A model generated the notes under the pieces. The model made no database searches. It was not told where the DNA came from and saw only the letters and a list, made by a program, of their open reading frames with translations. A DNA stretch of 64,000 nt from Eubacteriales bacterium (GTDB lineage Bacteria > Bacillota > Clostridia > Oscillospirales > CAG-382): assembly GCA_045598975.1 (NCBI GenBank), contig JAZRVE010000062.1, positions 18,815-82,814 on the forward strand, written 5' to 3'. The position numbers were made by a program, and so were the translations under genes. Shown here piece after piece: positions 25,197-51,137 of this stretch. The stretch's first letter is position 1; each line of letters starts with the position of its first letter.

Positions 25197-26414
25197 TTGA
25201 AAACAGTCAGTGTCATCGGCATGGGCTATATCGGACTGCCTACTGCCATGATGTTTGCATCGCAGGGGGTGCCGGTCATCGGAACAGACTGCAATGCGAA
25301 GCGGATCCGTTCATTGCAGGAAGGAAATCTCCCGATAGACGAGGACGGCATGGACGAGCTTTTTAAGAAGGCGAGCGCCCACGGCATTCGCTTTTCGGAG
25401 AAAGTCGAGGTCGCTGACGTTTATATCATCGCCGTTCCGACGCCGTATGATAAAGAAACGAAAAAAATCGACCCGTCCATGGTGGTTTCCGCTTTCAAGA
25501 GCGTTTTGGAGGTTTGCCCCGAAAACGCGGTGCTCATCTTGGAATCGACGGTCTCGCCCGGAACGGTGGATAAATACGTCCGTCCGCTCATCGCGGAGCA
25601 CCCGGAGAAAAAAGTGAATCTCGCTCACGCACCGGAGCGCATCATTCCCGGCAATATGGTTTATGAGCTTTGGAATAATGCAAGAACGATAGGGGCGGAC
25701 GATCCCGCTGTCGGCGAGAGCATCAAAGAACTGTATCGGAATATCTGCAAGGGCGGGATCACGGTAACGGATATCCGCACGGCGGAAATGACGAAGGTCA
25801 TCGAGAATACCTATCGGGATATCAATATCGCCTTTGCCAATGAAGTGTTGAAGCTCTGCAATGCGGCGGGTATAGACGCTTATGAGATCATCCGCATCGC
25901 CAACAAGCACCCGAGAGTCAACATTCTCTCTCCCGGGCCCGGTGTCGGCGGACACTGCATATCGGTCGATCCGTGGTTTCTGGTCGGCGATTTCCCGGAA
26001 TATACCGATCTGATAAGACAGGCACGGATTATCAACGACGGAATGCCGGAATACGTTTTACAACGTATCAAAGAAGTCATGAAGCGGGAAGGACTTGCGG
26101 ATTTCGGAAAAGTCGGCTTGTACGGACTGACGTACAAGGAAAACGTGAACGACACGAGAGAAAGTCCGACACTTCAACTTCTTGCACGCATGAAAAAGCA
26201 TTCGGTCGGCGGCATCAAAGTGTATGATCCTTTCGTCAGAGAGAAGATCGCGGAGCATCAGTACTTTGATTTACAGTCGTTCTTAAACGACGTCGATATG
26301 GTCGTCATCATGGTGGGACATGATGAGATCAAACAGCATTATGATTTGATAAAACAAAAAACCGTTCTTGACACAAGACATATTTGTCCGATAGACGGTA
26401 CATATTATCTTTGA
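25197..26414 (+). CDS. Nucleotide-sugar 6-dehydrogenase, UDP-N-acetyl-D-mannosamine (WecC/Cap5O)-like
   Basis: 'VSVIGMGYIGLPTAMMFASQG' is the NAD-binding motif; also 'ESTVSPGT' and 'AHAPERIIPGN'. I chose the TTG start at 25197, 8 nt after 'ggagg'; the ORF track opens at 25170. Substrate assignment (ManNAc versus GlcNAc) is tentative. Confidence 0.8.
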   Translation: MKTVSVIGMGYIGLPTAMMFASQGVPVIGTDCNAKRIRSLQEGNLPIDEDGMDELFKKASAHGIRFSEKVEVADVYIIAVPTPYDKETKKIDPSMVVSAFKSVLEVCPENAVLILESTVSPGTVDKYVRPLIAEHPEKKVNLAHAPERIIPGNMVYELWNNARTIGADDPAVGESIKELYRNICKGGITVTDIRTAEMTKVIENTYRDINIAFANEVLKLCNAAGIDAYEIIRIANKHPRVNILSPGPGVGGHCISVDPWFLVGDFPEYTDLIRQARIINDGMPEYVLQRIKEVMKREGLADFGKVGLYGLTYKENVNDTRESPTLQLLARMKKHSVGGIKVYDPFVREKIAEHQYFDLQSFLNDVDMVVIMVGHDEIKQHYDLIKQKTVLDTRHICPIDGTYYL

Positions 26415-26432
26415 TTTCAGGAGGGAAAGAAA

Positions 26433-27347
26433 ATGAGTAAGATTTTGGTAACCGGTGGTCTGGGCGTCGTCGGCACGGAGCTTGTCAAAGAGCTTCGCTC
26501 CCGTGGTCATGAGGTGTGGGTGTGCGATCTGCCGCACAATCATCACCCGCAGTATATCCGCTGTGATATCGGTGAGTACAGACAGCTCGAAAGAATTTTT
26601 GAGGCGCATACCTTTGACTATGTCTATAATCTGGCGGCGGAATTCGGTCGCTGGAACGGCGAAGATTATTACGAAAAGGTCTGGCATTCCAATGCCGTCG
26701 GTATGAAAAACGTGTTGAGATTGCAGGAGAAGTACCGTTTCAGACTGATCCATTTTTCTTCCTCCGAGGTCTACGGCGATTATACCGACGTCATGTACGA
26801 GGATGTTCTGGAAAAATGCCCCATCAAGCAGATGAACGACTATGCCATCTCCAAGTGGGTGAATGAATTGCAGATCCATAATTCGGAGCTTATGTTCGGC
26901 ACGGAAACGGTCAGAGTCCGTCTGTTCAACACCTACGGACCCGGCGAATATTTCAGCAACTACCGCAGTGTTATCTGCACCTTTACCTATAAAGCACTTC
27001 ACGATATTCCGTACACGGTCTACACGGGACATCACCGGACGAATACCTACATCACCGACTGCGTCCGTGCGCTCGCTACCATCTGCGAGAACTTCAAGCC
27101 GGGCGAGGTCTATAACATCGCATCGTCCGAGTATTACGATATCAAGACGCTGTCCGACCTGATCTTGAAATATGCGGGAAAGACCGACGCGCTTGTGACG
27201 TACAAGGAGCATGAGCCGCAGACGACCATCGACAAAAAAGTGGATAACAGCAAAGCCGTCCGCGATCTCGGGCTCAAAACGACGGTCGATATCGAAGAGG
27301 GCATCCGCCGCAATGTCGAGTGGATGAAGAAAGTATACTCCGAATGA
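26433..27347 (+). CDS. NAD-dependent nucleotide-sugar epimerase/dehydratase (extended SDR)
   Basis: 'ILVTGGLGVVGTELV' Rossmann motif, with 'SSSEVYG' and 'YAISKW' forming the S/YxxxK triad. The exact reaction is unknown. Confidence 0.8.
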   Translation: MSKILVTGGLGVVGTELVKELRSRGHEVWVCDLPHNHHPQYIRCDIGEYRQLERIFEAHTFDYVYNLAAEFGRWNGEDYYEKVWHSNAVGMKNVLRLQEKYRFRLIHFSSSEVYGDYTDVMYEDVLEKCPIKQMNDYAISKWVNELQIHNSELMFGTETVRVRLFNTYGPGEYFSNYRSVICTFTYKALHDIPYTVYTGHHRTNTYITDCVRALATICENFKPGEVYNIASSEYYDIKTLSDLILKYAGKTDALVTYKEHEPQTTIDKKVDNSKAVRDLGLKTTVDIEEGIRRNVEWMKKVYSE

Positions 27348-27390
27348 TTCGGCGCATGCCTGCGGCAGGCGTTGAAGAGGAAGGTCTGCC

Positions 27391-28494
27391 ATGAAAAAAA
27401 TCATGCTTCAAGGATATCTGAACGGCTCGAATTTCGGAGATATTCTGTATGCACATCAGTTTTATCGGAAATGCAAGGAGCTCGGCTTTCGGGAAACCGA
27501 TATTTTTCAGTATAACAAAAATCACGGTATCAGTCCGTTTTGCCGGAAAGAACTCGGATACACGAATCGCAAGAACTTTTTCTCCTCGCTGAGTGCGGAT
27601 GCGTTTGTGCTGATTTCCGGCGGTCATCTTTGGGATGACGGAAAAAGTAAACGCACGGTTGTCCTCAGATACTTGCGATTTGTTTTGCCTGCCCGGCTGT
27701 ATCAGTGCATGGGAAAACCGGTGTACATTCTCGGTGTCGGCGGCGGACCGGTGAATACGCCGTGGCTCAGAAGAAGCATCGTAAGGATGCTTGACCGTGC
27801 AAAGATCGTATACTTTCGTGATGCGGGAACAAAAAAAGTGTTTGAGGCGTATGGCGTAAAGAATCAATTGACCGTGACGGCGGATACGGCGCTTTTGGTA
27901 ACGGCGGATATGCTGCCGGCTTTGCGGGAAAAGCAGGAGCTGGACGCGGCAGCGAACGGACGGAAAAAACTGCTGCTGCATATTCATCCCGGTGATCCGG
28001 CGGGTTTCGGGTACCTTAGGGATATGATATTGCCGGCGCTGATCGATTTTCTGAAAGAACACCGAGAATACCTGCTCGTCTTATCACAGGACAATGAATT
28101 TGATGCCGAAAGTGTGCCGCAAATAAAGGAAGTATATAAAAAGCTGGACGAATCCGGCACGGAGTATTACCGGTATAACTATCACGACTGTATGCAGATG
28201 GCATCTCTTATCAACGAAACGGATTGTATCGTAACGATGAAACTCCATGTCGGTGTTGTCGGTGCGGCGCTCGGCAAAAGCGTGGTATCTTTCCCCGATC
28301 ACCGTGAAAAAACGGATTATTTCTATGCGGAAACAGGAGAATCCGGGAGATGCTGCAACGTCAGACGGCTCACAAGAGAACTGGCATACCGTCAGCTCGA
28401 AGAATTTCACGATAAGCCTGTTGCAATATCCGAGGCTCTGCGAAAAAAAGCCGCGGAAAACCTTGATGCATTGAGCAAAACAGCGCGTATTTAG
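27391..28494 (+). CDS. Polysaccharide pyruvyl transferase family protein (WcaK/CsaB-like)
   Basis: The N-terminal 'GYLNGSNFGDILYA' and 'ISGGHLWDD' resemble PS_pyruv_trans motifs. Size (367 aa) and context also fit. Confidence 0.6.
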   Translation: MKKIMLQGYLNGSNFGDILYAHQFYRKCKELGFRETDIFQYNKNHGISPFCRKELGYTNRKNFFSSLSADAFVLISGGHLWDDGKSKRTVVLRYLRFVLPARLYQCMGKPVYILGVGGGPVNTPWLRRSIVRMLDRAKIVYFRDAGTKKVFEAYGVKNQLTVTADTALLVTADMLPALREKQELDAAANGRKKLLLHIHPGDPAGFGYLRDMILPALIDFLKEHREYLLVLSQDNEFDAESVPQIKEVYKKLDESGTEYYRYNYHDCMQMASLINETDCIVTMKLHVGVVGAALGKSVVSFPDHREKTDYFYAETGESGRCCNVRRLTRELAYRQLEEFHDKPVAISEALRKKAAENLDALSKTARI

Positions 28495-28515
28495 CTTACA
28501 TGAAGGAGGGGCGTT

Positions 28516-29526
28516 ATGCTTTCGAGTTATAGAAAATGGGACGTTCAAGGTAAGACCAAAACGTTGGGATTATGCAAAGGCACGACGGCGTGGGCGCTTG
28601 ACATAATGGCCAGACGCACCGGGAACGACAAATGGGAAAAACCGGTTCACAAAACCTATATGAAATGGTTGCAGAAAAAATATTGGGATGCCGGCTTGTA
28701 TAACACAGATGCCGTGAGTGAAATAACGTTCGGAGAATACGAAAAATCCGACAAGACCGACGTCTGGATTTTTTGGCATCAGGGCTGGGACACCGAAAAT
28801 GCGCCGCACTACGTTGAAGACTGCTTGTATCAGGGTTGGGAGAAAAATTCCGCTCCTGATATTGTCAAGAACTGCCGGAAATCGACAGATAAGTTTTTGG
28901 ATCGGGAAAAATACAATATCCACCGTCTGGATAAAGATAATTACAGCTCATTCGTAAAATTCCCCGAATGGATCATGAAAAAGGTTGAATCGGGAACGAT
29001 CAATCTTACAAAATTCAGCAATTTATTAAGACTGGCACTGCTGTACCGATACGGCGGGATATGGATGGACGCCACCATATTCCTTACGGAGCCGCTTGAT
29101 GAAAAGATAACGGATTATCGGTATTTCTCCATAAAAACGCCGCCGGTAAAACCGAACTTCTGGATATCCTTTGACTGGACAACTTATTTTTTGGCGACCG
29201 GTGCGTGCGAAACAAAGTTTTTCAAAGAACTGCTGACATTGCAGATGGAGTATTGGCGAAGAGAAGACTACGTCATGGATTATCTGCTGTTTGATTATCT
29301 GATCGCCTTGATCCATGCCAACGAGCCGGATATCGCCGAAGAATGGGCGAAAATTCCGGAGAACAATGTAGACAATCTGTTTATTGAGCACTCGTTGAAT
29401 AAGAAATTTGATCCTGTGGAGTGGGAAGAAATCAGGAAGAAAACGAGTATATTCAAGGTTACTTATAAAGTCCCGCTCTCGGACGATCCGGATACATACT
29501 ATAACAGGGTAGTGAACAGTATATGA
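28516..29526 (+). CDS. Capsular polysaccharide synthesis protein (Caps_synth / DXD-type glycosyltransferase-like)
   Basis: 'VWIFWHQGW' and 'FSNLLRLALLYRYGGIWMDATIFLTEPL' are characteristic of the Caps_synth/Gly_transf_sug family. Confidence 0.7.
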   Translation: MLSSYRKWDVQGKTKTLGLCKGTTAWALDIMARRTGNDKWEKPVHKTYMKWLQKKYWDAGLYNTDAVSEITFGEYEKSDKTDVWIFWHQGWDTENAPHYVEDCLYQGWEKNSAPDIVKNCRKSTDKFLDREKYNIHRLDKDNYSSFVKFPEWIMKKVESGTINLTKFSNLLRLALLYRYGGIWMDATIFLTEPLDEKITDYRYFSIKTPPVKPNFWISFDWTTYFLATGACETKFFKELLTLQMEYWRREDYVMDYLLFDYLIALIHANEPDIAEEWAKIPENNVDNLFIEHSLNKKFDPVEWEEIRKKTSIFKVTYKVPLSDDPDTYYNRVVNSI

Positions 29527-30629
29527 AAAAAATCTTATTGATCGCAGACACGTATCATCCCGATTCAAGCGCGACGACGAATCTGTTTCGGCGGACAATG
29601 GAAGCATTGGCAAAGCTCGGCTATGATGTTTCCGTATATCCGACGGAGCTTTCGGGGAACCGATTTTCGTATCCCGAGGAATATAACGGCGTAAAAATCT
29701 TCAAGCCGGAGCAGTCGCTTGATGAGATCCTTGACAGTACGGAATACGATTATGTATTCTCGGGTGCTGTCAATTTCCGGGTGAATTTCATTGCTCATAA
29801 AGCATTAAAGGGCAGAAAATGCAAGTGGTTCCCGACGTCCTACGATCCGTATGCGTTCGATCCGCATATCACGGCGGAACAGAAAAAGGCGTATGTTCAG
29901 GAAGAAATCGACGCTCTGAAAGATGCGGCAAAGGTTTTCTTCTTAACGGAATTCAAAGAGGATTATATCGGCTCGCCGATCGAGGACAAGATCGAGTACT
30001 TCATGCTCCCGTGCATCCGGGAATTTTGCCCCGATACAGCGAAAAGAGTTGTTGAATTTGATGATGATTTTATCAACTGCGTATTCCTCGGAGATTTCTA
30101 TCTCGGCATTGAAAATACGGATTTCATCTTCCGTCTGTTTGAAAAAATCATCGAAAAAAACAAAAAGATACGCTTCTATACGGTCGGCAATCTCGGTGAC
30201 TACGGCGACACGGTCGAATTGTGGAAGAAAAAACTCGGAGACGGGTATATCTGCCATAAGCGTGTCAGCCAAGAGGAATCGTATAATGTGTTATTTGACT
30301 GCGACGTGCTTGTCAGCATGGGGCATGACAGCGCCAATATGTGCCCGAGCAAGATCATAGACTTTGTTTCAGCCGGCAGACCGATCTTACATATCGGGAA
30401 GATCGAAAACTGCTGCGGCAAAAAATATCTCGCGAAATACCCCGATAAATATTGCATTTATCAGGGCGACGAACTGACCGCCGAAAGGGTAGACGAGACA
30501 GAACGGTTTATCGTAAACGCAAAAGGCAGAGAGAGAATACCGTTTGAAGACGTAAAAGAAATATACGGCGATTTCACGATGGAAGCATTGATCGGAAAAA
30601 TTCTCAAAGTATTTGATGAGGTGCGGTAA
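29523..30629 (+). CDS. Putative GT-B-fold glycosyltransferase (family unclear)
   Basis: 'MKKILLIADTYHPDSSATTNLF' is a GT-B-like N-terminus and a second Rossmann-like half follows. There is no clear EX7E motif. It overlaps the previous stop by 4 nt. Confidence 0.45.
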   Translation: MKKILLIADTYHPDSSATTNLFRRTMEALAKLGYDVSVYPTELSGNRFSYPEEYNGVKIFKPEQSLDEILDSTEYDYVFSGAVNFRVNFIAHKALKGRKCKWFPTSYDPYAFDPHITAEQKKAYVQEEIDALKDAAKVFFLTEFKEDYIGSPIEDKIEYFMLPCIREFCPDTAKRVVEFDDDFINCVFLGDFYLGIENTDFIFRLFEKIIEKNKKIRFYTVGNLGDYGDTVELWKKKLGDGYICHKRVSQEESYNVLFDCDVLVSMGHDSANMCPSKIIDFVSAGRPILHIGKIENCCGKKYLAKYPDKYCIYQGDELTAERVDETERFIVNAKGRERIPFEDVKEIYGDFTMEALIGKILKVFDEVR

Positions 30630-30630
30630 C

Positions 30631-31266
30631 ATGATGGAAAACATACTGATCGTCGGGGCGCATTTCGACGATGCCGAGCTCGGTGCCGGCGGCACGGCGG
30701 CAAAGCTTGTAAGTCAGGGAAAAAAAGTATATAAATTCACGCTGACGGATAATGAAACCCATTTCGCACAGCGTAACGTTCACGTCAGTTTCAGCGATTC
30801 GGTAAAACAGAGCGCCGAGGCGGCAAAAGCCATCGGCATGATCGAGATCGAAAACAAGAATCCGATCCCGCACGCCGCTTTGACGTACGGCACGGAGATC
30901 ATGCAGAAGGTGGAAAGCATCATTTTCGATTATCACATCGACACCATCTTCCTCCATTTCGACGAGGATATGCATCAGGATCACGTGGAGGCAAATAAAA
31001 TCTGTCTGACGGCGGCACGGCACTGCGCCAATATCCTCGAATACAAGAGTAACGGATATATTCTCGAAAACGAATATCATCCGACCTATTTCGTGGACAT
31101 CAGCGATTATATCGGGCAAAAGAAAAAGGCACTTGCCTGCTACGGCTCGGAGCATGACAGAATGAGCCGCCTGTTTGAGATGAATATCGAAAGAAATCAT
31201 ATCTGGGGCTATGCAAACGAAGTCGAATACGCCGAGGGCTTCCGCGTCATCAAAATGCTCGGCTGA
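30631..31266 (+). CDS. PIG-L/LmbE-family N-acetylglucosaminyl deacetylase
   Basis: '[22 protein letters not shown]' (the AHxDD...GxGGT motif) and 'HQDH' metal ligands. The ATG at 30631 lies 7 nt after 'gaggtg'. Confidence 0.85.
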
Positions 31267-31298
31267 TAAAAATTCCCATAAGAAAAGAAGTGAAACAG

Positions 31299-32531
31299 AT
31301 GAAGATCGCCATTGCCGGTACGGGATATGTGGGACTGTCGCTTGCGGCTCTGCTTTCGCAGAAGAACGAAGTGACGGCAGTTGATATCGTTCCCGAAAAG
31401 GTCGAAATGATAAATAACAGAATCAGCCCGATTCAGGATAAAGAAATCCAAGAATTTTTTGCCGAAAAGAAGCTGGATCTGAAAGCCACCGTGAATGCCG
31501 AAGAAGCATATCGGGATGCAGAGTATGTTGTCATTGCCGTTCCGACAAACTACGATCCTCAGAAGAACTTTTTTGATACCTCTGCCGTTGAAACTGTGAT
31601 CGAAACGGTGATGCGTCATAACAAAATCTGTGTTATGGTGATAAAATCCACCGTTCCCGTAGGCTATACCGAAAAGGTCTGCGAAAAATACGGAACGGAC
31701 AGAATTATGTTCAGCCCGGAATTTTTGAGAGAATCCAAGGCACTGTATGATAACCTTTATCCGTCCAGAATCATCGCCGGAACGGACAAAGCCAATCCGG
31801 AAATGGTGCAAAAAGCGGTAAAATTTGCCTCACTTCTCCGGGAAAGTGCCGAAAAAGAGGAAGTCGAAACGCTGATTATCGGCAGAAACGAGGCGGAAGC
31901 CGTCAAGCTTTTCGCCAACACCTATCTTGCCCTGCGTGTTTCCTATTTCAACGAGCTTGATACCTATGCGGAGTTGAAAGGCTTGAACACAAAAGACATT
32001 ATCGACGGCGTCTGTCTTGACCCGAGGATCGGGAACTTTTACAACAATCCTTCTTTCGGTTACGGCGGGTACTGCCTGCCGAAGGACACCAAACAGCTCC
32101 TTGCCAACTACGGCGACGTGCCGGAAAATCTGATCGGCGCCATTGTGGAAAGCAACCGTACGCGAAAGGAATTCATCGCAGACCGTGTGCTTGCCATGGC
32201 GGGGTATTATGAGGCAAGCGAAAGCTATGACAAGGCCAAAGAGAAAGAGATCACCGTCGGCGTTTACCGCCTTACCATGAAAAGCGGAAGCGACAATTTC
32301 CGTCAGAGCAGTATCCAGGGTGTGATGAAACGGATCAAAGCCAAAGGGGCAAAGGTCATAGTCTTCGAACCCTCGCTTGAAGACGGCACGACCTTTTTCG
32401 GAAGTGAAGTAGTGAATGATCTGGATTCATTCAAAAAGATGAGTCAGTGCATCATCGCAAACCGATACGACGCCTGCCTTGACGACGTGAAAGAGAAAGT
32501 ATATACAAGAGATTTGTTCAAGAGAGATTGA
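31299..32531 (+). CDS. ugd: UDP-glucose 6-dehydrogenase
   Basis: '[21 protein letters not shown]', 'FSPEFLRE', catalytic Cys in '[10 protein letters not shown]', and overall Ugd length. Confidence 0.92.
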
Positions 32532-33613: not shown

Positions 33614-33661
33614 CCGACAGCACGGTTACAATACTTTTACAACATATTGGAGTTACTTAAA

Positions 33662-34912: not shown

Positions 34913-34940
34913 GTTGTCCCTTTAAGAAAGGTGAGATGCC

Positions 34941-36128: not shown

Positions 36129-36139
36129 CCGTGGAGCTC

Positions 36140-37320: not shown

Positions 37321-37339
37321 TGATAAAGCGGGTGTGAAG

Positions 37340-40586: not shown

Positions 40587-40588
40587 AT

Positions 40589-42921: not shown

Positions 42922-42935
42922 AATGAGCGAAAAAT

Positions 42936-44009
42936 ATGAAATTGGTTTTTTATATTGACTGCATGGGACTCGGCGGTGCGCAGAGGGTCATGAAAAATTT
43001 ACTGGACTATTTTTCCGCTTGCAACGACGTGATCCTTGTTAATGATTACGCACCGTCTGTCGGCATCGAAGAATATGAAATATCCGACCGGGTAAAACGG
43101 ATATGCCTGAATGAAAAATGCAAGTCTCCGGAAAGACCCGGCAATCGGGAACGGATCTCGTTGCTCCGAAAAATCTTAATCAATGAAGAGCCGGACGTCG
43201 CCGTGTCTTTTTTGGGACCGCCGAATTACAGGCTGCTGCTTGCGTCAACGGGATTAAAAATCAAAACCGTTGTCTCGGTTCGCAATGATCCGAATAAAGA
43301 GTACGGAACCGGCATCCGGAGGATGTTTGCCGACATGCTGTTCTGTCTTGCCGACGGAGTGGTATTCCAGACGGAAGACGCCGCTTCGTATTTTTCGGAA
43401 AGCGTTCGCAAAAAATCCGTTGTGATATTTAATCCCGTATCGTCCGATTTCTATGAGAAAAAACGGAACGGATCGGGAAAAGAAATCATCGCGGTCGGAA
43501 GACTGCACCCACAGAAGAATCCGCGGCTGCTTTTAGAGGCTTTTATTAAAATCGCAGATAAAATACCGCAGTATTCATTGGGATATTACGGAGACGGCGG
43601 GTTAAGACCGATATTGGAGGCGAGGACCGAAGAGGCGGGGCTGTCTGATCGGATCCGATTTTACGGCAGATGTACCGATATGCCGGGGATCATGGAAAAA
43701 GCCGGAATATTTGTGCTATGTTCGGACTATGAGGGGATGCCGAATGCGCTGATGGAAGCAATGGCGTCCGGGATGCCGGTCATCGCCACGGATTGCCCTT
43801 GCGGCGGTCCGCGGGCACTGATTCGTGATAAAAATGAGGGGCTTCTTATTCCGATGAACGACGTTGAGGCTCTCTCGAAAGCAATTCTGGAATTGGCGTC
43901 AGACGATCAAAAGCGCGCGGATATCGGGAAAAACGCATCGATCAGAGCTCTTGACTTTTCACCGGATATCATTATGAAACAATGGGAAGCTTTTATTTCA
44001 AAACGGTAA
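42936..44009 (+). CDS. Glycosyltransferase family 4
   Basis: 'MGLGGAQRVMKNL' and 'CSDYEGMPNALMEAMASGMPVIATDCPCGGPRALI' (EX7E). Confidence 0.85.
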   Translation: MKLVFYIDCMGLGGAQRVMKNLLDYFSACNDVILVNDYAPSVGIEEYEISDRVKRICLNEKCKSPERPGNRERISLLRKILINEEPDVAVSFLGPPNYRLLLASTGLKIKTVVSVRNDPNKEYGTGIRRMFADMLFCLADGVVFQTEDAASYFSESVRKKSVVIFNPVSSDFYEKKRNGSGKEIIAVGRLHPQKNPRLLLEAFIKIADKIPQYSLGYYGDGGLRPILEARTEEAGLSDRIRFYGRCTDMPGIMEKAGIFVLCSDYEGMPNALMEAMASGMPVIATDCPCGGPRALIRDKNEGLLIPMNDVEALSKAILELASDDQKRADIGKNASIRALDFSPDIIMKQWEAFISKR

Positions 44010-44042
44010 CGAGGGGATGTTTCCCGAAAGGAGGGGAAAAAG

Positions 44043-45248
44043 ATGTCAAACGAAATGAAAAACAAAATTACATTATCAAATGTCGACTATATGGCAATTA
44101 TCTTTTCGGTCATGATAATAGCAAACAATACGTTTGAAATGGATGCGGTATTATACGTCTTTCCGAAGATGCTGATGTTCCTGTTCTTTGCCGTCATGTC
44201 CGTATTCGTTGTTCTGAATATAAAAAATAAAGAACCGTTAAACTGTAAAAATCTGATTTTTCCCGTCCTCTTTTTTGCCTGGGAATCGCTGTCCTTGATC
44301 TGGTCGGCGGACAGAGCGTATTCCTTGTTCCGTTGGGAAACGCAGGCACAGCTTTTTCTCCTGTTTTTGTTCGTATATTACTACATGAGAACAAATGGCT
44401 CGGTGAAGACGTTTCTCGTTGCTACCTATCTGTCGGGATATGCCTTACTCATCTATACGGTTTCCCGATACGGGCTTGCAAACATTTTCACTCTTGTTTC
44501 GGACGCCGACAGACTGGGAGGAGAGATCAACAATGCCAATACATACGGCATGTTTTTTGCAAGTGCGGTGCTTGTCGCGTTTTACTTTATCACGCAGAAG
44601 AAGAGCAAACTTCATATCGTAAGTATCGTGTTGTTCTCGTATTTTGCACTGGCAAGCGGCTCGAAAAAGGCGGCGGTTATGATCCTTGCGGGAATCGTCG
44701 GAATCAGTGTGCTTGCGTACGGAATCAAGCGGATGTGGAAACTATTATTGGTTTTGGCATTGCTGATTGCAATAATTCTTGTTGTCATCAACATGAATCT
44801 GTTTCCTTCCCTTGTTGAAAGGCTTACTTCTTTTCTTGCCGGTGAATTGAATGCGGGCGACAGTGTCAGAGAAATATTCAGAGAAACAGGGCTCGAATTG
44901 ATTACGAAAAGACCGTTGTTCGGATACGGGCTTGCCGTCTTTGCCAAAGTGACCGGTATCGGAACATATTCACATGACAATTTCATTGAGATCTGCGTGA
45001 GTTCCGGGATTGTCGGCTTGCTTTTGTATTATATCCCCTGGTTTTATTCCGCGTTGGTTTTGCTGAAAGACTTTTTCGAAAAAAAAGGCGATAGCTTGAT
45101 TCTGTTCATGTTTGTGATCCTGTATATCGTCATGGGGGTCGGAAACGTTCAGTATGAATCGAGAGATGTATGGATCTTTCTGGCAGTTGTATTGGCGGTA
45201 ATAGATAAAGAAAAACAGGCGGCAGAAGCAGAGGGGTATGCATTATGA
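44043..45248 (+). CDS. wzy: O-antigen/repeat-unit polymerase (Wzy; O-antigen ligase-like family)
   Basis: 401-aa polytopic membrane protein (about 10-11 TM by eye) with a larger loop near 'LVERLTSFLAGELNAGDSVREIFRETGLELITKRPLFGYG'. The locus also encodes Wzx and a Wzz domain. Confidence 0.65.
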   Translation: MSNEMKNKITLSNVDYMAIIFSVMIIANNTFEMDAVLYVFPKMLMFLFFAVMSVFVVLNIKNKEPLNCKNLIFPVLFFAWESLSLIWSADRAYSLFRWETQAQLFLLFLFVYYYMRTNGSVKTFLVATYLSGYALLIYTVSRYGLANIFTLVSDADRLGGEINNANTYGMFFASAVLVAFYFITQKKSKLHIVSIVLFSYFALASGSKKAAVMILAGIVGISVLAYGIKRMWKLLLVLALLIAIILVVINMNLFPSLVERLTSFLAGELNAGDSVREIFRETGLELITKRPLFGYGLAVFAKVTGIGTYSHDNFIEICVSSGIVGLLLYYIPWFYSALVLLKDFFEKKGDSLILFMFVILYIVMGVGNVQYESRDVWIFLAVVLAVIDKEKQAAEAEGYAL

Positions 45249-46150
45249 GCAAGCTTGCGATGGGGTTTTATATGTTGGCTGCCGGAGGACACTTCAAATG
45301 GCTGCCGGATAAGACATTTTTGAAAATACAGTACCGGCTGAACATGCATAAAAAACTGAATCTCGAAAATCCGAAGACCTTTACGGAAAAACTGCAATGG
45401 ATGAAAATATACGACAGAAATCCGGATTATATTCCGATGGTCGACAAGTATGCCGTAAAAGAGTATGTTGCCGAAAAAATCGGTGAGGAGTATATCATAC
45501 CGACTTTGGGCGTTTGGGATCGTTTTGACGAGATTGATTTTGACAAGCTGCCGGACATGTTCGTTCTGAAATGTACGCACGACAGCGGAAGCATCGTGAT
45601 CTGCAAGGATAAAAAAACTTTTAACATGGATGCGGCACGAAGAAAAATCAATGCGCATCTGAAAGCGAATCAATATGATGCCTTCCGAGAATGGCCGTAT
45701 AAAGACGTAAAGCCGAGAATTATCGCCGAACCGTATCTTGAAGATACCGAAACAAAAGAACTCAGAGATTATAAACTGTATACGTTTAACGGCACGGTGA
45801 AAATCATAGGCGTTTATACAGGAAGAAAAAGCTCTGCGGGAACATGCACGGATTTTTTCGATGAAAACTATCAACATTTGCCGTTTGTGTGGGTATATCC
45901 CAAAGCAAAGCGTGTCCCCGAAAAGCCCGATCGATTTGAAGAAATGAAGACGCTTGCGGAAAAACTTGCCCGTGGGATACCGCAGGTGAGAGTTGATTTT
46001 TATGAGGTTGACGGCAAAGTCCTTTTCGGGGAAATGACATTTTTCACCAGCGCCGGAGTCGTACCGTTTGAGTCGGAAGAATGGGACGAAAAACTCGGGC
46101 AGATGTGGGATTTGACAGGTCATAACGACACACAGACAAAACAGATATAA
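45245..46150 (+). CDS. TupA-like ATP-grasp amidoligase
   Basis: 'LNLENPKTFTEKLQWMKIYDRNP...VDKYAVKEYV', 'FVLKCTHDSGSIVICKD', 'LRDYKLYTFNG' and 'VRVDFYEVDGKVLFGEMTFFTSAG' form the characteristic TupA-like ATPgrasp pattern. The start overlaps the wzy stop. Confidence 0.8.
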   Translation: MSKLAMGFYMLAAGGHFKWLPDKTFLKIQYRLNMHKKLNLENPKTFTEKLQWMKIYDRNPDYIPMVDKYAVKEYVAEKIGEEYIIPTLGVWDRFDEIDFDKLPDMFVLKCTHDSGSIVICKDKKTFNMDAARRKINAHLKANQYDAFREWPYKDVKPRIIAEPYLEDTETKELRDYKLYTFNGTVKIIGVYTGRKSSAGTCTDFFDENYQHLPFVWVYPKAKRVPEKPDRFEEMKTLAEKLARGIPQVRVDFYEVDGKVLFGEMTFFTSAGVVPFESEEWDEKLGQMWDLTGHNDTQTKQI

Positions 46151-46270
46151 GACAGCAGAACAAGAGCCGCTATTGAATGAGGGAGATTATGCTTGAAGAT
46201 TCTGACTGTTAAGCAAGAAATCACGTAAGAAATAGGCAATATTATCCGGTATTAAGGTGGCGTGAAAACC

Positions 46271-47317
46271 ATGAAATTGCTCAGTATTCTGATTCCCGTA
46301 TATAATGCGGAAAGATTTATTAGACCCCTGCTGGAAAACCTTCTGCGTCAGGTCGACGAAAGATGCGAGATCATTTTGCTTAACGACGGCTCAACGGATC
46401 ACAGCCTTTCGATTTGCGAAGAATTTCAAAGAGAAAACAGAGGCTCGATCCGGCTTATCACAAGAGAAAACAGAGGGGCAGTGAAGTCGCGCAGGGACTT
46501 GCTTGAAGCATCAGATGGGGAATGGATCTGGATCATAGATTCAGACGATAATGTGACAGCCGATGCCGTGTCTTCTCTGATGAGTATTCTTGAAACGACG
46601 GATTGCGATATGATCCTTTTTGATATGTTTTTTAAATTATGTGGGCAGATGTTCGGAAAAAATCAGTTGCCCTATGACGATAACACGGTATTTACAGGTG
46701 ATAACAAGCATTTGTTATATGTAAAATTGGTTGAGGGGACGATAAACAATCTTTGGAATAAGGTGTTCCGAAGAAGCACGGTTGATTTTGAAAAGGATTA
46801 TACACCGTTTTATGATGTGCGCAACGGTGAGGACTGTCTTCAAGTGCTTCCGATTCTCACTGCTGCAAAAAAAATCCTCTACATGAAAAAAGCGCTGTAT
46901 ATCTATGAGATCGGCAACCCGGACAGTGTAACACATACATTCAGCGAAAAAATGTATACTTCATTGCTGAAAGTGTGGAAAGAACAAAGAACGTATGTTA
47001 TTCTCTGGGGGCTTTGGGAGGAGTATTCACGTCTATACTATACTAAGTGTGCCAATTCAGCTTGCAGACTTCTGTCTTTCTATGTTTTGTCGGAGCTGAT
47101 TGCCGATAGGGATATTCAGGCATTTTTTGATAAAGTACTGAGCGATGATGTGTTCGGAGAAAGTATCAGACTGTGTAAAACAACACTTTCACAGAAAAAT
47201 TATATGTTGATAAAGGCGCTGAAAAAAGGAAATATCAAAAGTGCTTGCCGCATAATCAATTTTACGGACAAAATCAGAAAGATTCGCAATAAATTCAGAA
47301 AAGGGTTACACATATAA
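46271..47317 (+). CDS. Glycosyltransferase family 2
   Basis: 'LSILIPVYNAERFIRPLLENLLRQ...EIILLNDGSTDHS' and the 'DSDD' DXD motif. The ATG at 46271 follows 'aaggtgg'. Confidence 0.88.
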   Translation: MKLLSILIPVYNAERFIRPLLENLLRQVDERCEIILLNDGSTDHSLSICEEFQRENRGSIRLITRENRGAVKSRRDLLEASDGEWIWIIDSDDNVTADAVSSLMSILETTDCDMILFDMFFKLCGQMFGKNQLPYDDNTVFTGDNKHLLYVKLVEGTINNLWNKVFRRSTVDFEKDYTPFYDVRNGEDCLQVLPILTAAKKILYMKKALYIYEIGNPDSVTHTFSEKMYTSLLKVWKEQRTYVILWGLWEEYSRLYYTKCANSACRLLSFYVLSELIADRDIQAFFDKVLSDDVFGESIRLCKTTLSQKNYMLIKALKKGNIKSACRIINFTDKIRKIRNKFRKGLHI

Positions 47318-48822
47318 TGACAGACAGACGCGAGAAGCAGGTAAAATACAGTATATATATGTCATTGATCGGCAAGGCGGTTACGGTAATTGTGGGAATC
47401 ATCGTTCCCAGGCTGTTTCTGTCACGCTTTGGCTCAGAGGTGTATGGTGCGACGAACTCGATCAATCAGTTCCTCGCGTTTATCACCATTCTGGAAGGCG
47501 GCGTAGGCGGAGTTGCCCGTGCGGCGCTGTATAAGCCCCTTGCCGAAAACGATATGGGCAAAACCGGCGAAATAATGACGGAAATAAAACACTATTTCAG
47601 AACAATCGGTTTTATTTTCGCGGCGTATGTCGTAGTGTTGGCGTCGGGCTTTCAAAAAATCTCCCGTATTGAGGCACTGGATTGGATATCTACGTTTTGG
47701 CTTGTGATCGTAATCAGTATTTCCGGCTTTGCACAGTATTTTATCGGAATATCCAACAGATTGTTGATGCAGGCATCTCGAAGGCATTATATTTCAAGCT
47801 TTATCGATATCAGCGGTATTATTGTGCAAGCGATCGTGACCGTCCTTTTGATCCGTGCGGGATGCGGTATCATTACGGTAGAATTATTCATCGCATTTGT
47901 TTGCACTTTGAGACCGATTTTGTTATGGCTTTATGTAAAAAAGAGTTTTGATCTGAAAAAGACCGCACGCAATAAAAATGCTCTTGAAAACAAATGGACC
48001 GGCATGGGACAACATCTTGCCTTTTTCCTGCATAACCAGACGGACGTTGCCGTATTGACACTTTTGGGCAATTTGCTGTTGGTGGCGGTATATTCCGTAT
48101 ATGCTATGGCGATCAACGCAATACAGAACATCGTTTTATCTTTCTCGACCGGAATGGAAGCGCTGTTCGGTGATATGTATGCCAAGAAAGAGTATGAGTT
48201 GCTGAACAAGACCTTCAACGAATATGAGACATTGATATCCTGCATAACAACGGTACTGTTTTCGACGACAATTGTTTTGCTCACGCCGTTCGTAAGAATA
48301 TATACAAGCGGTATCACGGATGCGGATTATTATCAACCGCTGTTCGGCATTGTCCTTGCGATCGCTTCTGTCTTATATTGTTTGAGAGCCCCATATCATA
48401 ATATGGTTATAGCGGCAGGACATTTCAAGGAAACCCGATGGGCATCATATGGCGAGGCGGTCATCAATTTGTTGCTTTCAATCCTTCTCGTAATGAAGTT
48501 CGGACTTGTCGGCGTTGCGATCGGAACCGTTTGCGCAACGGCGTTTCGCCTTATATTCTACGTGTTCTATCTGTCAAAAAATATCCTTAACAGAAGCGTC
48601 GGTTTATGGCTGAAAAGGACGGTCGTCAACGCCGTCGTGATGATAATCATAATCTTTTTGGGTAATCTCGCAACAAGTCATATGGAAATAGACAATTATT
48701 TGTATTGGGCTCTGACGGGTGTAATAACAGTCGGTATTGCCGCGGCGGTCACAATGATCGGTAATTTCTGTTTCTATAAGAATGACACTATACGGGTGTT
48801 AAAACATATCATTTCAAAATAA
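47317..48822 (+). CDS. wzx: Wzx-type oligosaccharide flippase (MOP/PST family)
   Basis: 501 aa, about 14 TM helices, N-terminus 'YMSLIGKAVTVIVGIIVPRLFLSRFGSEVYG'. The start ATG shares one base with the GT2 stop (TAATG). Confidence 0.8.
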   Translation: MTDRREKQVKYSIYMSLIGKAVTVIVGIIVPRLFLSRFGSEVYGATNSINQFLAFITILEGGVGGVARAALYKPLAENDMGKTGEIMTEIKHYFRTIGFIFAAYVVVLASGFQKISRIEALDWISTFWLVIVISISGFAQYFIGISNRLLMQASRRHYISSFIDISGIIVQAIVTVLLIRAGCGIITVELFIAFVCTLRPILLWLYVKKSFDLKKTARNKNALENKWTGMGQHLAFFLHNQTDVAVLTLLGNLLLVAVYSVYAMAINAIQNIVLSFSTGMEALFGDMYAKKEYELLNKTFNEYETLISCITTVLFSTTIVLLTPFVRIYTSGITDADYYQPLFGIVLAIASVLYCLRAPYHNMVIAAGHFKETRWASYGEAVINLLLSILLVMKFGLVGVAIGTVCATAFRLIFYVFYLSKNILNRSVGLWLKRTVVNAVVMIIIIFLGNLATSHMEIDNYLYWALTGVITVGIAAAVTMIGNFCFYKNDTIRVLKHIISK

Positions 48823-48870
48823 TTTTTGCAAAAAAGCTTTTCCGAAAAAGAAAAAAGGAGATTTCGTCAA

Positions 48871-50439
48871 ATGAATTCAGCAAAAAAAACAGACAAAACC
48901 ATGGTGGATGTGCATCGTATACTGAAAGCACTGTGGAAAAAGAAGATTCTGATAGTTGTGGTGTCAGTATTGTGTGCGATAATCATGGTAGTAGGCGTTG
49001 CGGTGTTCTCAACGCCGAAATATCGGGCAGACATTCTTGTATATGTCAATAACCATGCCGTTTCCGTCGGGGGCACGGCTATCAGTTTCAGCACGGGAGA
49101 TCTGACGGCGGCAAGAGCTCTTCTTGACACATACATCGTTGCGCTGAAATCAAGAAAATCGTTGGATGCCATTATTGAAAAGGCTGACCTGCCTTATACG
49201 AGAAGACAGCTTTCAAGCATGATTTCGGCGGGCTCGGTAAACAAAACCGAGTGTTTTACCGTTGCTGTCACAGCCGGCGATCCGGAAGAGGCACGGATCA
49301 TTGCGAATACAGTGGCGGAGGTTTTGCCGGAGGTACTGTCAAACACAATTGAAGGAAGCTCGGTCAAAGTTCTCGACTATGCGATCGCGCCACAGAACAA
49401 GGTCGATCCGGGGTATACAACTTTTGCCGAAATCGGTTTTATTATCGGATTCATTCTGATCGCTCTTATCGTTACCGTAAAAGAAATCCTGAATGATAAA
49501 ATTCACGGGGAAGACACGCTGACCGAGATGTCCGATACCGTTCCGGTCCTTGCCACGATTCCGCACAAAGGGATGAAGGGCAGTTATTCCAAATACGGGT
49601 ACGGTCATAAGAATAAGGAAAACGGCAGTTCGCATAAGAGTAAGAGCAAGTTCTTCGATGAAGCTACGGCTATATGCGGCGACCTTGATTTTTCCCAGAC
49701 CGAGGCATACAATCTGCTTCAAACAAGTGTGCAGTACAGCTTTGAAAATGATGGCTGTAAAGTTATCGGCATCACCAGCTCGGAAAGAAATGAAGGAAAG
49801 AGTACACTTGCCGTTAACCTTGCCTATTCGCTTTCGGCTGACAAGAAAAAGGTACTTCTTCTTGATGGTGATATGCGTCTGCCGACCATCGCAAAGAAAT
49901 TGGGACTTGAATCCACGCCCGGACTCAGTGATTATCTGACCGGAAAAGTACAGAATGACGACGGCATACAGCACAGCCAAAAGGCGCCGTCCATGTCGGT
50001 CATTTGTTCGGGCGTCGTACCGCCCAATCCGTTCCGACTGATCGGCTCGGCAAGTATGGAAAGATTGTTGGATTCACTCAGAGAAGCATATGATTATATT
50101 ATCGTCGATCTTCCTCCGGTCAATATCGTTTCCGATCCGCTTTCCGTTGCCCGATATCTTGACGGATTTATCATCGTTGCCCGCGGCGAATACTCGACCA
50201 GACAGGGCGTTGCGGATGTTGTCAAGAAACTTGAAGTCGTAAAGGCGAATATTCTCGGTTTTGTTGTGAACGGCGACGGTTCGTCTTCGGAAAATAAGTA
50301 CGGCAAATATGGCAAACACGGAAAATATGCGGCCTCGGACGGGGACTATGAAAGCCATTATGAGCGTTCCGCAAAGAAAGCCGCCGACCGCACGGTTTCA
50401 CCGGAATCATCCGGCAGTGATACAACGAAAAAATCATGA
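48871..50439 (+). CDS. Fused Wzz-type chain-length regulator and BY-family tyrosine autokinase (CpsC-CpsD fusion)
   Basis: The N-terminal Wzz module has two TM helices ('ILIVVVSVLCAIIMVVGVAVF', 'IGFIIGFILIALIVTV'). The kinase has Walker A 'SSERNEGKST', A' 'LLLDGDMRLP' and B 'IIVDLPP'. The C-terminal Tyr cluster is 'NKYGKYGKHGKYAASDGDYESHY'. The ATG at 48871 follows 'aaggag'. Confidence 0.88.
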   Translation: MNSAKKTDKTMVDVHRILKALWKKKILIVVVSVLCAIIMVVGVAVFSTPKYRADILVYVNNHAVSVGGTAISFSTGDLTAARALLDTYIVALKSRKSLDAIIEKADLPYTRRQLSSMISAGSVNKTECFTVAVTAGDPEEARIIANTVAEVLPEVLSNTIEGSSVKVLDYAIAPQNKVDPGYTTFAEIGFIIGFILIALIVTVKEILNDKIHGEDTLTEMSDTVPVLATIPHKGMKGSYSKYGYGHKNKENGSSHKSKSKFFDEATAICGDLDFSQTEAYNLLQTSVQYSFENDGCKVIGITSSERNEGKSTLAVNLAYSLSADKKKVLLLDGDMRLPTIAKKLGLESTPGLSDYLTGKVQNDDGIQHSQKAPSMSVICSGVVPPNPFRLIGSASMERLLDSLREAYDYIIVDLPPVNIVSDPLSVARYLDGFIIVARGEYSTRQGVADVVKKLEVVKANILGFVVNGDGSSSENKYGKYGKHGKYAASDGDYESHYERSAKKAADRTVSPESSGSDTTKKS

Positions 50440-51137
50440 CGGAAGAAAAATGTACGGTCGATATCCATACGCATATTTTGCCTCAAATGGATGACGGTGC
50501 TTCTTCTTTGGAAGAGAGCTTACAGCTTGCAGGCGAATTATCAAAGCAGGGGATTACCGTCATAGCGGCAACACCGCACTTCTACGCCGACAGAGAGAAT
50601 CCGTCCGATTTCTTTGACAGAAGACGGAAAGCCGTATCTTTACTTGCCGACAAGCTTGACAAAGGCGTAACGGTTTTGCCGGGAGCGGAGGTTTACTATT
50701 ATCAGGGGATCAGCAGAACGGAGCGGCTGCCGGAATTTGCGATCGGGCAGACGGATCTGCTGCTGCTCGAAATGCCGTTCGGCGATTGGACGCGGTCTGT
50801 GATAAACGAAGTCTGTTCCATTCAGAGAGAGAGAAAATTGCAGGTCGTTATAGCCCATATCGACAGATATATGAGCCAAAAGAACGTGGACAATATTGAG
50901 GATATGATTAGCCTCGGCATGCTGTTTCAGATCAACGCAAGCGCATTCCTTGATAAAAAGCGGAAAAATGCGGCACTTGCCATGCTGAAAAACAGAATTG
51001 TCCACTTTGTCGCTTCCGATTGCCACAACATGACGGCAAGACCGCCTAAACTTCGTGATGCGTATGAAGTGATCGAAAAGAAACTCGGAAGTGACTCCGT
51101 GAAATGGCTCTGCGAGCAATCGGAATTATATTTTTAG
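50436..51137 (+). CDS. PHP-family protein-tyrosine phosphatase (CpsB/YwqE-type)
   Basis: 'VDIHTHILPQMDDGASSLEESL...ATPHF' and a later 'ASDCHN'. The start overlaps the kinase stop by 4 nt. Confidence 0.9.
   Translation: MTEEKCTVDIHTHILPQMDDGASSLEESLQLAGELSKQGITVIAATPHFYADRENPSDFFDRRRKAVSLLADKLDKGVTVLPGAEVYYYQGISRTERLPEFAIGQTDLLLLEMPFGDWTRSVINEVCSIQRERKLQVVIAHIDRYMSQKNVDNIEDMISLGMLFQINASAFLDKKRKNAALAMLKNRIVHFVASDCHNMTARPPKLRDAYEVIEKKLGSDSVKWLCEQSELYF

Follow-up and report, generated by a model that had tools for sequence, protein, structure and literature searches.

Among the known systems nearest to the one treated here is Cj1438C from the HS:2 capsule system of Campylobacter jejuni, a TupA-like domain that amidates capsule glucuronate; Cj1438 as a whole consists of a GT2 glycosyltransferase (GT) and this TupA-like amidoligase, and the following GT then works on the glucuronamide of the nascent chain, so that amidation takes place during chain assembly (PMC11800379). 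ManNAc(3NAm)A6Thr of Methanococcus is a precedent for an amino-acid-amidated uronic acid (PMC11407970), as is ManNAcA6Thr from the same genus, and an amino-acid-bearing exopolysaccharide is known from Vibrio alginolyticus (PMC4663550). The Vibrio polysaccharide (VPS) of V. cholerae carries an amide-linked substituent. In Bacillus halodurans, a TupA-family ATP-grasp enzyme is tied to the teichuronopeptide, a uronic-acid polymer with amino acids. Here we present the analysis of a polysaccharide locus within a 64,000-nt stretch of DNA from an Eubacteriales bacterium (contig JAZRVE010000062.1; the whole stretch is called the window), in which 24 genes (g1 to g24, all on the + strand) include five for ATP-grasp ligases, three of them from the family ATPgrasp_ST (PF14397) and named ST1, ST2 and ST3.

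As read from its gene content, the region is one Wzx/Wzy-dependent surface-polysaccharide locus, and the evidence tips slightly towards a polymer that carries amino acids or a short peptide installed by these ligases. Amino-acid-decorated glycans are an already known and chemically documented product class; new are the co-occurrence, within a single Wzx/Wzy locus, of three families of ATP-grasp enzymes, a cross-phylum set of eight genes with a fixed ST1/ST3 pair, and recurrent ST arrays. A first-pass annotation, made by a model from the sequence, knew of no characterized locus with this combination; that statement stands, but the uniqueness it implied does not, as orthologous and analogous loci exist, some of them with six ST genes and a TupA-like gene.

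ATP-grasp ligases of the locus

Genes were assigned by Pfam and NCBIfam profile scans and by best PDB sequence matches, and AlphaFold2 models of g5 and ST2 were searched with Foldseek. The five ATP-grasp genes proposed in the first-pass annotation (starting at 34941, 37340, 38425, 39480 and 45245) were recovered by the Pfam search at these positions and in the families named. The products of g13 (ST1, 37340-38428), g14 (ST2, 38425-39483, between ST1 and ST3) and g15 (ST3, 39480-40586) all lie above the PF14397 gathering cut-off of 31.4 bits (125.6, 166.4 and 94.3 bits, respectively), and their genes stand between that of the priming transferase (g12) and that of a co-conserved GT (g16, GT4a). 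The L-amino-acid-ligase-like (LAL-like) product of g10 (34941-36128) has ATP-grasp_4 (PF13535, 55.5 bits) and LAL_C2 (PF18603, 33.8 bits) domains, both above cut-off, and matches PDB entry 4dim (117 bits) and the L-amino acid ligase BL00235 (99 bits). The TupA-like product of g20 (45245-46150) scores 231 bits against PF14305 (cut-off 25) over profile positions 1-239 of 241, and its DFY...FGE.TF motif is kept in four homologues. None of the five falls into the PurK/Ddl primary-metabolism equivalogs of NCBIfam, a check that the earlier annotation had called for. An identification of g10 as PurK, PurT or Ddl was rejected, all such NCBIfam scores being far under their cut-offs; its operon context, with a DegT gene upstream and genes for a GNAT protein and the priming transferase downstream, suggests a sugar-linked substrate rather than two free L-amino acids. 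All five ligases are free of transmembrane (TM) segments, and an enzyme that depends on ATP and has neither a TM segment nor a signal must work in the cytoplasm.

The ST trio keeps the ATP-grasp pattern VKP...E...Q...W-D...E-x-N. Residues K160, E199, Q203, D318, E331 and N333 (numbering of g13, whose product has 362 aa and whose exact sequence is in the database) are invariant in ST1, ST2 and ST3, which are about 30% identical to one another. Across 20 ATPgrasp_ST family members the K, W-D and E-x-N residues are invariant and E-E and Q nearly so; their mapping to the Mg2+ ligands of RimK is by pattern only. The AlphaFold2 model of ST2 (pLDDT 90.9) shows an N-terminal region of some 120 residues that is all-helical, together with an ATP-grasp core whose closest folds are RimK, LysX/ArgX, Ddl and cyanophycin synthetase, all of them carboxylate-amine ligases. 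A weak match of g15 is to TIGR02291 ('alpha-L-glutamate ligase-like').

Compared with Cj1438C, g20 shares the full-length PF14305 match, the predicted ATP dependence and cytoplasmic location, and the setting in a polysaccharide locus that also makes UDP-GlcA; the glucuronate amidation by the Cj1438 C-terminus, which the first-pass annotation had cited, agrees with the published work (PMC11800379). In contrast to Cj1438, g20 is a separate protein with no GT fused to it, and the window adds another four ligases, which belong to two different ATP-grasp families. The C. jejuni capsule follows an ABC-transporter pathway and is amidated with ethanolamine or serinol phosphate and not amino acids. With the amidated-uronate glycans of Methanococcus and Vibrio the predicted product would share a HexNAcA/HexA repeat unit with amide-linked amino acids; those glycans bear single amino acids, whereas the ligase count of the window allows up to five additions or a short peptide. 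No ATPgrasp_ST enzyme was found named in the papers on the Methanococcus and Vibrio cholerae amidated glycans, and a literature search for the enzyme that adds serine in E. coli K40 gave nothing of use. The difference from the teichuronopeptide is that the window has a Wzx/Wzy heteropolysaccharide locus, with no PgsB-type Mur ligase and no PGA_cap among its 24 genes (Pfam), although its orthologous counterpart L002 does have PGA_cap.

Related loci

The comparison covered five related loci, namely L001/L022 (an Acutalibacteraceae metagenome-assembled genome, MAG), L002 (an ENA metagenome contig), L023 (a Logan assembly), L024 (a Bacteroidaceae MAG) and L025 (a JGI contig), the last being a reduced version of the locus. 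The similarity of its LepA, and the Acutalibacteraceae MAG as source of the nearest related locus, place the host of the window among the Clostridia, as an uncultured bacterium of gut type. Eight genes (g1, g2, g5, g6, g9, ST1, ST3 and GT4a) are shared at 54-98% identity among the related Clostridia loci and the Bacteroidaceae MAG. The ranges are 54-88% for g1, 89-98% for g2, 61-91% for g5, 72-93% for g6, 71-75% for g9, 55-78% for ST1 (L022, L002, L023 and L024), and, across four related loci each, 67-79% for ST3 and 71-82% for GT4a, which also has a 38% identical counterpart in L007, an ST array locus of a planctomycete. The eight-gene set is taken to be horizontally shared. The priming transferase gene g12 goes with it; of the four related loci that have g12, three show no more than 41-55% identity.

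ST1 and ST3 are direct neighbors in L023 and L024; the window, L001 and L002 alone have ST2 inserted at this point. The number of ST genes varies over one, two or three, while the rest of the shared set is single copy. The pair of Ugd and epimerase genes (g7, g8) is confined to the window among these loci. The LAL-like and GNAT genes (g10, g11) occur together in the window and L002 and are replaced in L022 and L023 by a different ATP-grasp gene without GNAT. A TupA-like gene follows the Wzy gene in the window and L002, g20 being 71% identical to the L002 copy. By their occurrence, ST2, the Ugd/epimerase pair, the LAL-like and GNAT pair and the TupA-like gene are lineage-specific add-ons. In place of the LAL-like and GNAT pair, L024 (13538-15589) and L025 (17218-20201) have an AMP-binding enzyme, joined in L025 by an acyl carrier protein and KAS III; from this replacement it would seem that the acyl group placed on the freed amine of the sugar varies with the lineage.

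A correspondence of one ligase to each uronate is not supported: L022, with the same three ST genes, has no Ugd/epimerase pair within the 21-kb stretch examined, and the loci with two ST genes (L023, L024) carry one dehydrogenase. A genome scan with a narrower ST alignment gave 16 loci and only one orthologue. Metagenome scans with ST3 gave nothing for the single sequence and only relatives of 24-36% identity for the orthologue alignment.

The ATPgrasp_ST family

With a 20-member profile, 14,158 cluster representatives were matched at E <= 1e-3, and 4,954 of them still at E <= 1e-30, out of 1.84 billion clustered at 50% identity; no solved structure closely matching ATPgrasp_ST was found. Arrays of five or six ST paralogues stand among Wzx, GT and pyruvyl-transferase genes in L021 (a Bacteroidales MAG), L007 (a planctomycete MAG) and L028 (an unassigned metagenome contig). 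Six ST genes each are present in L021 and L028, in the latter with a TupA-like gene directly downstream, and the mean identity of paralogues inside such arrays is 33-43%. L008 (a Thermoguttaceae MAG) has three intact ST genes and two fragments beside two Wzx genes; the array of L016 (Bacilli) instead has as neighbors a PGA_cap gene and one that encodes a Mur-ligase-LRR fusion. Some single polypeptides contain two ST domains, and in another a GT2 is joined to two of them (GT2+ST+ST), which mirrors the layout of Cj1438; these fusions point to action on glycan intermediates. In most ST loci examined, as in the window, the ST genes lie among genes for GTs, priming transferases or Wzx. The exceptions are L004 and L005, in which a lone ST gene (10001-11035) stands beside LRR_5 surface proteins, a transglutaminase-core protein and a phage-type integrase, with no glycan genes within 10 kb.

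CapA-family PGA_cap genes are found beside ST or TupA genes in L002 (15031-16170) and L016 (10876-12060), and in P0108, a fusion that could be an assembly artefact, two ST domains flank PGA_cap in one polypeptide that also has BspA-type LRR repeats. Such neighbors are hints of a link between ST/TupA enzymes and oligo- or poly-amino-acid chemistry.

Nucleotide-sugar enzymes

Two UDPG_MGDP_dh dehydrogenases and two epimerase/dehydratase-family proteins that are short-chain dehydrogenases/reductases (SDRs) are encoded in the locus (Pfam). The families that the first-pass annotation gave to the dehydrogenases were correct, whereas their positions had to be corrected, the WecC-like enzyme being encoded by the first gene and Ugd by the seventh. 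The product of g1 (25197-26414), with three UDPG_MGDP_dh domains, is a WecC/Cap5O-like nucleotide-sugar 6-dehydrogenase, predicted to convert UDP-HexNAc to UDP-HexNAcA; it scores 415 bits for TIGR03026 (above cut-off) and 351 bits for the UDP-ManNAc dehydrogenase equivalog (under the cut-off of 459), and its closest PDB structure is the UDP-ManNAc dehydrogenase Cap5O (331 bits). The UDP-glucose 6-dehydrogenase-like (Ugd) product of g7 (31290-32531) reaches 562 bits for NF011631, under the equivalog cut-off of 757, and 313 bits for TIGR03026, over the cut-off. The adjoining g8 (32528-33613) encodes an SDR with the motifs SSSVYG and YAATK that reaches no NCBIfam equivalog cut-off. Its PDB ranking is led by 5u4q (336 bits, deposited as 'dTDP-glucose 4,6-dehydratase'), followed by WbgU, 6zl6 (the Bacillus cereus UGA epimerase, 118-120 bits) and MoeE5 (111 bits); its position next to Ugd supports a UDP-glucuronate 4-epimerase-like function.

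The product of g2 (26433-27347) is an extended SDR of 304 aa with an orthologue-level match to Mth373 of Methanothermobacter (PDB 8w3u/9ar1, 367 bits) and a putative UDP-uronate 4-oxidase/decarboxylase. Its motifs EFGRW/SSE/YAISK correspond to EYGRW/SAE/YAITK of Mth373, and the catalytic pattern of S-x-E and Y-x3-K is kept. The depositors assigned Mth373 as an oxidative decarboxylase of the UDP-xylose-synthase type, and crystals grown with UDP-GlcA held UDP-xylose. An alternative function of g2 as a 4,6-dehydratase that makes a 6-deoxy substrate of the Spr1654 type was considered less likely, since g2 has S-S-E, not the T-D-E pair carried by 4,6-dehydratases, and always follows a 6-dehydrogenase. 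Copies of g2 (L022 4908-5822, L023 6037-6960, L024 16274-17188, L025 11863-12780) share 97-98% identity among the Clostridia loci, and 89% with those in the Bacteroidaceae MAG and the unassigned JGI metagenome contig; the neighbors of g2 are far less conserved (g1 only 54-55%), and the structure nearest to g2 comes from a pseudomurein-containing methanogen.

The DegT-family sugar 4-aminotransferase encoded by g9 (33647-34912; PF01041, 288.6 bits) is closest to PDB 6ewj (467 bits), the pneumococcal aminotransferase Spr1654, which is predicted to make the 4-amino sugar AATGal; the ArnB structures come next, at 156-184 bits. In the related loci g1 is always paired with g2 and a Spr1654-like 4-aminotransferase (g9), and in L022, L023 and L024 g2 is the only in-locus enzyme able to supply the DegT protein with a keto-sugar. 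The route from g1 may therefore feed an amino sugar, the carboxylate possibly being lost, by a g1-g2-g9 sequence analogous to Ugd-ArnA-ArnB; decarboxylation by g2 is putative, and both Mth373 and Spr1654 have predicted functions themselves. The resemblance to Ugd-ArnA-ArnB lies in a 6-dehydrogenase (g1), an SDR with S-x-E and Y-x3-K (g2) and an aminotransferase with matches to ArnB (g9). It differs in that g1 is WecC/Cap5O-like, so that HexNAc and not glucose would be oxidized, in that g9 is far closer to Spr1654 and g2 decarboxylation is predicted, and in that the locus has no formyltransferase and no ArnT. Of the three uronic-acid routes that the first-pass annotation saw as feeding the ligases, the third (g1) may lead to an amino sugar instead; the PIG-L deacetylase and DegT aminotransferase named there were both confirmed by Pfam.

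Glycan assembly genes

Besides the three GT4 proteins, the GT2 protein and the Caps_synth protein that Pfam confirms from the first-pass annotation, its GT-B-like candidate (g5, 29523-30629) was identified from the AlphaFold2 model, with no significant Pfam match. The model (pLDDT 89) has a GT-B (GT4-like) fold with MshA and BshA (GT4) as top Foldseek PDB matches (E of about 1e-10 to 1e-11), and g5 is found at 55-87% identity in 60 clusters, including a Bacteroidaceae MAG. The PIG-L family de-N-acetylase gene g6 (30613-31266; PF02585, 55.5 bits; BshB1 79 bits, below cut-off) overlaps g5 by 17 nt and adjoins it also in L001, L002, L023 and L025. Together with the g10 ligase and the GNAT N-acetyltransferase of g11 (36131-36610; PF00583, 53.2 bits), the MshA/BshA fold of g5 and the weak BshB1 match of g6 recall mycothiol and bacillithiol synthesis; an order of GT, deacetylase, aminoacylation and N-acetylation makes chemical sense for the window genes. 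The difference is that g10 is an ATP-grasp enzyme, not a Cys-tRNA-synthetase-like MshC or BshC, and that its acceptor would be a lipid-linked glycan and not inositol or malate; no equivalog threshold of this pathway is reached, and the analogy is one of logic and not of membership.

The small (PglC-like) polyprenyl-phosphate sugar-phosphate transferase of g12 (36607-37320; PF02397, Bac_transf, 183.9 bits) has one predicted TM segment. The GT4 genes are g16 (GT4a, 40589-41851; Pfam GT4 domains), which travels with the ST genes, g17 (41848-42921; PF00534, 88.3 bits) and g18 (42936-44009; PF00534, 125.2 bits); g21 (46262-47317; PF00535, 96.3 bits) encodes the GT2 protein and g4 (28516-29526; PF05704, 209 bits; PF04488, 30.9 bits) the DXD-type Caps_synth-family GT. 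Of the parts of a Wzx/Wzy locus, the priming transferase, Wzy, and a chain-length regulator/BY-kinase with phosphatase are present. The Wzy-type polymerase of g19 (44043-45248; PF04932, Wzy_C, 46.6 bits against a cut-off of 31.7) is polytopic, with at least 7 hydrophobic segments; g23 (48826-50439) encodes a fused Wzz chain-length domain and BY tyrosine kinase (PF02706, 51.8 bits; AAA_31, 52.4 bits; TIGR01007, 164.5 bits, over cut-off), and g24 (50436-51137) a CpsB/CapC PHP-type tyrosine phosphatase (PF19567, 153 bits). The complete Wzy-dependent machinery claimed in the first-pass annotation is thus seen by Pfam in the priming transferase, Wzy, Wzz-kinase and CpsB, but Wzx is a probable assignment, based on about 12 predicted TM segments and position: g22 (47317-48822) has no Pfam or NCBIfam match, even at E up to 1; the L002 gene in the corresponding place shares 36% identity with it.

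Two genes absent from the earlier account are that of the GNAT protein (36131-36610) and g3 (27391-28494), a polysaccharide pyruvyl transferase gene (PF04230, 94.6 bits). A role of g3 as the CsaB of an SLH-anchoring cell-wall polymer was kept as an observation only, its score for the CsaB equivalog being 70.8 bits against a cut-off of 213. Pyruvyl transferase genes recur in ATPgrasp_ST loci of three phyla (L021 15089-15952, L007 14056-16548, L024 11164-12309, L022 7446-8231 and the window 27391-28494), one of them fused to FrhB/4Fe-4S domains. A pyruvate ketal could in principle be a further sugar-borne carboxylate, and its amidation by an ATP-grasp enzyme is conceivable; to our knowledge there is no precedent for such a reaction.

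Proposed pathway

In the pathway proposed here, nucleotide sugars would be made in the cytoplasm, with g7 and g8 supplying UDP-GlcA and UDP-GalA, and with the g1 dehydrogenase followed by 4-oxidation (g2, perhaps with decarboxylation) and 4-transamination (g9) leading to a 4-amino sugar, as in Ugd-ArnA-ArnB. The small priming transferase (g12) would load undecaprenyl phosphate, and six GTs would assemble the repeat unit, g5 adding a HexNAc that g6 would de-N-acetylate to a free amine. The five ATP-grasp ligases would form acyl-phosphates and then amide bonds, on nucleotide sugars or on the undecaprenyl-pyrophosphate-linked unit, at the cytoplasmic face and before flipping. By analogy with Cj1438C, g20 would most likely amidate the carboxylate of GlcA or GalA; g10 and g11 would most likely place an N-acetyl-aminoacyl group on the sugar amine, following the mycothiol logic of MshB, MshC and MshD. 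ST1 and ST3, with ST2 where present, would add one amino acid each, at separate sites or in series; in the serial version a short peptide would be extended from the carboxylate of the first residue by chemistry of the RimK/LysX type. The decorated and pyruvylated unit would then be flipped by g22 and polymerized by g19 under the regulation of the kinase/phosphatase pair (g23, g24).

A bolder and unlikely extension is that the ST ligases form a ribosome- and NRPS-independent assembly line that builds a peptide stem of two to six residues on an undecaprenyl-linked sugar, each ST paralogue adding one defined amino acid to the previous carboxylate before flipping. Serial extension is favored by the variation in ST number against a single-copy set, by the tandem ST fusions and by RimK and LysX as nearest folds. 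The logic would parallel that of MurC-F and the pseudomurein peptide ligases, but with ATP-grasp enzymes and on a Wzx/Wzy polysaccharide.

Alternative explanations

A number of points weigh against an amino-acid-decorated polymer or against single steps of its synthesis. As far as the sequence tells, the acceptor may be the carboxylate or the amine of a sugar, or else a peptide under extension. The chemistry of the ST enzymes is predicted from fold and context, and a literature search found no paper that mentions ATPgrasp_ST (PF14397). The g10 product is without a plain E-x-N motif, the decarboxylase assignment of Mth373 comes from crystallography and not from an assay, and WecB, present in L022-L025, is absent from the 64-kb window. 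The census is small, with the five related loci and about 25 ST loci. The TupA-like protein CfmP of Klebsiella alters the fimbrial protein FimA independently of surface polysaccharides (PMC13419641), and PF14305 membership is therefore no guarantee of a glycan substrate. A general link between ST genes and uronate synthesis, a check suggested by the first-pass annotation, was not confirmed, as a sugar 6-dehydrogenase gene lies within 10 kb in only one of the 17 ST loci outside the five related loci (phmmer co-occurrence, by which divergent families are missed); in several of the 17 there is either a DegT gene accompanied by an SDR gene or an ATP-grasp gene of the LAL-like kind. For this reason uronate amidation is no more likely than N-aminoacylation of amino sugars.

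The ligases might even act on amines only, N-aminoacylating the DegT product and the PIG-L-deacetylated hexosamine and leaving the uronic acids free. That ST genes are found with DegT and SDR or LAL-like genes more often than with sugar 6-dehydrogenases agrees with this, as do the placement of DegT, PIG-L and the ST pair within the conserved set and of Ugd and the epimerase outside it, and the way in which PIG-L, ligase and GNAT mirror the mycothiol logic. We nevertheless hold it to be improbable: enzymes of the RimK/LysX type activate the carboxylate of the larger acceptor, not that of the incoming amino acid, the sole characterized TupA-like domain amidates a uronate, and Ugd-type genes are often encoded elsewhere, so that their absence within 10 kb is weak evidence. 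The position of the ST genes, with their 4-nt overlaps, between the priming transferase gene and the gene of a GT conserved along with them, the existence of the GT2+ST+ST fusion, and the fact that the paralogues are diverged and few, and not a single processive enzyme, all count against a separate oligo- or poly-amino-acid product (of oligoglutamate type, for example) made by the ST ligases, and perhaps by the TupA-like ligase too, and either co-produced with the acidic polysaccharide or attached en bloc to it as in a teichuronopeptide, after which TupA was named. This is quite improbable, the more so with neither PGA_cap nor PgsB/Mur-ligase in the locus, even though the folds nearest to ST2 include RimK (a poly-alpha-glutamate synthetase) and cyanophycin synthetase, g15 matches TIGR02291 weakly, and PGA_cap accompanies ST or TupA genes in L002, L016 and P0108.

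Some or all of the ATP-grasp enzymes could instead modify a protein (an S-layer/SLH protein, a pilin or the tyrosine kinase) or catalyze a non-amide reaction; RimK and TTL relatives do modify proteins, CfmP is a case within the TupA-like family, and the isolated ST gene of L004/L005 lies beside LRR surface proteins and away from glycan genes. Such a role is very unlikely for genes embedded among GT, priming transferase and Wzx genes in the window and most loci and translationally coupled to the priming transferase and GT4a, in a family that includes a GT2-ST fusion. Least credible of all is an ordinary acidic heteropolysaccharide locus whose ATP-grasp paralogues are partly redundant or decaying duplicates without effect on the product. 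Polysaccharide loci are mosaic and often contain inactive genes, and the GC content below that of the flanks suggests recent acquisition, but the five reading frames are intact, all three ST paralogues keep the catalytic pattern, each ST gene has orthologues at 55-79% identity elsewhere, implying purifying selection on each, and a mutual identity of about 30% makes the duplications old. A polymer decorated by the ligases is the reading retained here as the most probable.

Locus boundaries and flanking genes

The locus comprises 24 tightly packed, co-directional open reading frames (ORFs) on the + strand over about 26 kb (25170/25197-51137), in agreement with the first-pass count when the ORF list of the window and the junction arithmetic are compared. 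All seven overlaps that had been noted (29523, 38425, 39480, 41848, 45245, 47317 and 50436) were reproduced, and further 4-nt overlaps at 32528 and 36607 and a 17-nt overlap at 30613 bring the set to eight of 4 nt, one of 17 nt and one of 1 nt. The widest intergenic gap in the locus is 111 nt (46150/46262). As the observation is one of gene content, it raises no question of chance. TTG at 25197 is a better start for g1 than that of the longer ORF from 25170, because GGAGG precedes it by 9 nt. The GC content is 0.42-0.49 in the locus versus 0.52-0.58 in the flanks. Promoter and terminator scans of both locus ends and of the 111-nt gap stayed at or below shuffle expectation and were uninformative.

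Upstream, an ORF for LuxS (24164-24784, - strand, 206 aa) has its top-scoring Pfam stretch from residue 88 onwards; the listed start may be over-extended, and a second, unlisted Pfam stretch may cover the residues before 88. The promoter of the locus probably lies in the 385 nt between LuxS and g1 (412 nt with a g1 start at 25197); no convincing sigma-70-type site was found there. Farther upstream, a protein of 956 aa (7163-10033, + strand) combines an NAGPA (phosphodiester glycosidase) domain with a C-terminal SLH match; in other Firmicutes, pyruvylated cell-wall polymers anchor SLH proteins. Downstream (51222-57209, - strand) lies a GDP-sugar set of a phosphoglucomutase/phosphomannomutase-family protein, a ManC-like NTP-transferase with cupin, a GDP-fucose-synthase-like SDR and a GDP-mannose 4,6-dehydratase (Gmd), after which an AraC-family regulator is encoded on the + strand. 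As a ManC/SDR/Gmd/AraC group also flanks the related locus L023 (1-4154), the GDP-sugar set may be part of the system, as the source of a deoxyhexose. Beyond the polysaccharide region, a protein with a cNMP-binding domain (58836-59378) is encoded near a PAS and adenylate/guanylate-cyclase protein (60012-61412), a possible cyclic-nucleotide signaling pair.

Significance

Should each ligase add one amino acid at one site, the locus would encode an elaborate but unsurprising capsule variant. If the assembly-line version were true, the number and order of ST genes (two in L023 and L024, three in the window, six in L021 and L028) would encode the length and sequence of a peptide, and a widespread, unrecognized class of surface glycopeptide polymers would exist in gut and rumen bacteria. 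The locus and its relatives form a compact test bed for ATPgrasp_ST, with a natural variation in ligase number of 1, 2, 3 or 6; once worked out, they would yield ATP-dependent tools for glycan-amino-acid conjugation. Such work would also give a genetic basis to the decorations with amino acids that NMR has long shown in glycans of bacteria and archaea, and would allow them to be predicted from the genomes of uncultured gut and rumen bacteria, in which susceptibility to phages and recognition by the host immune system are shaped by surface glycans.

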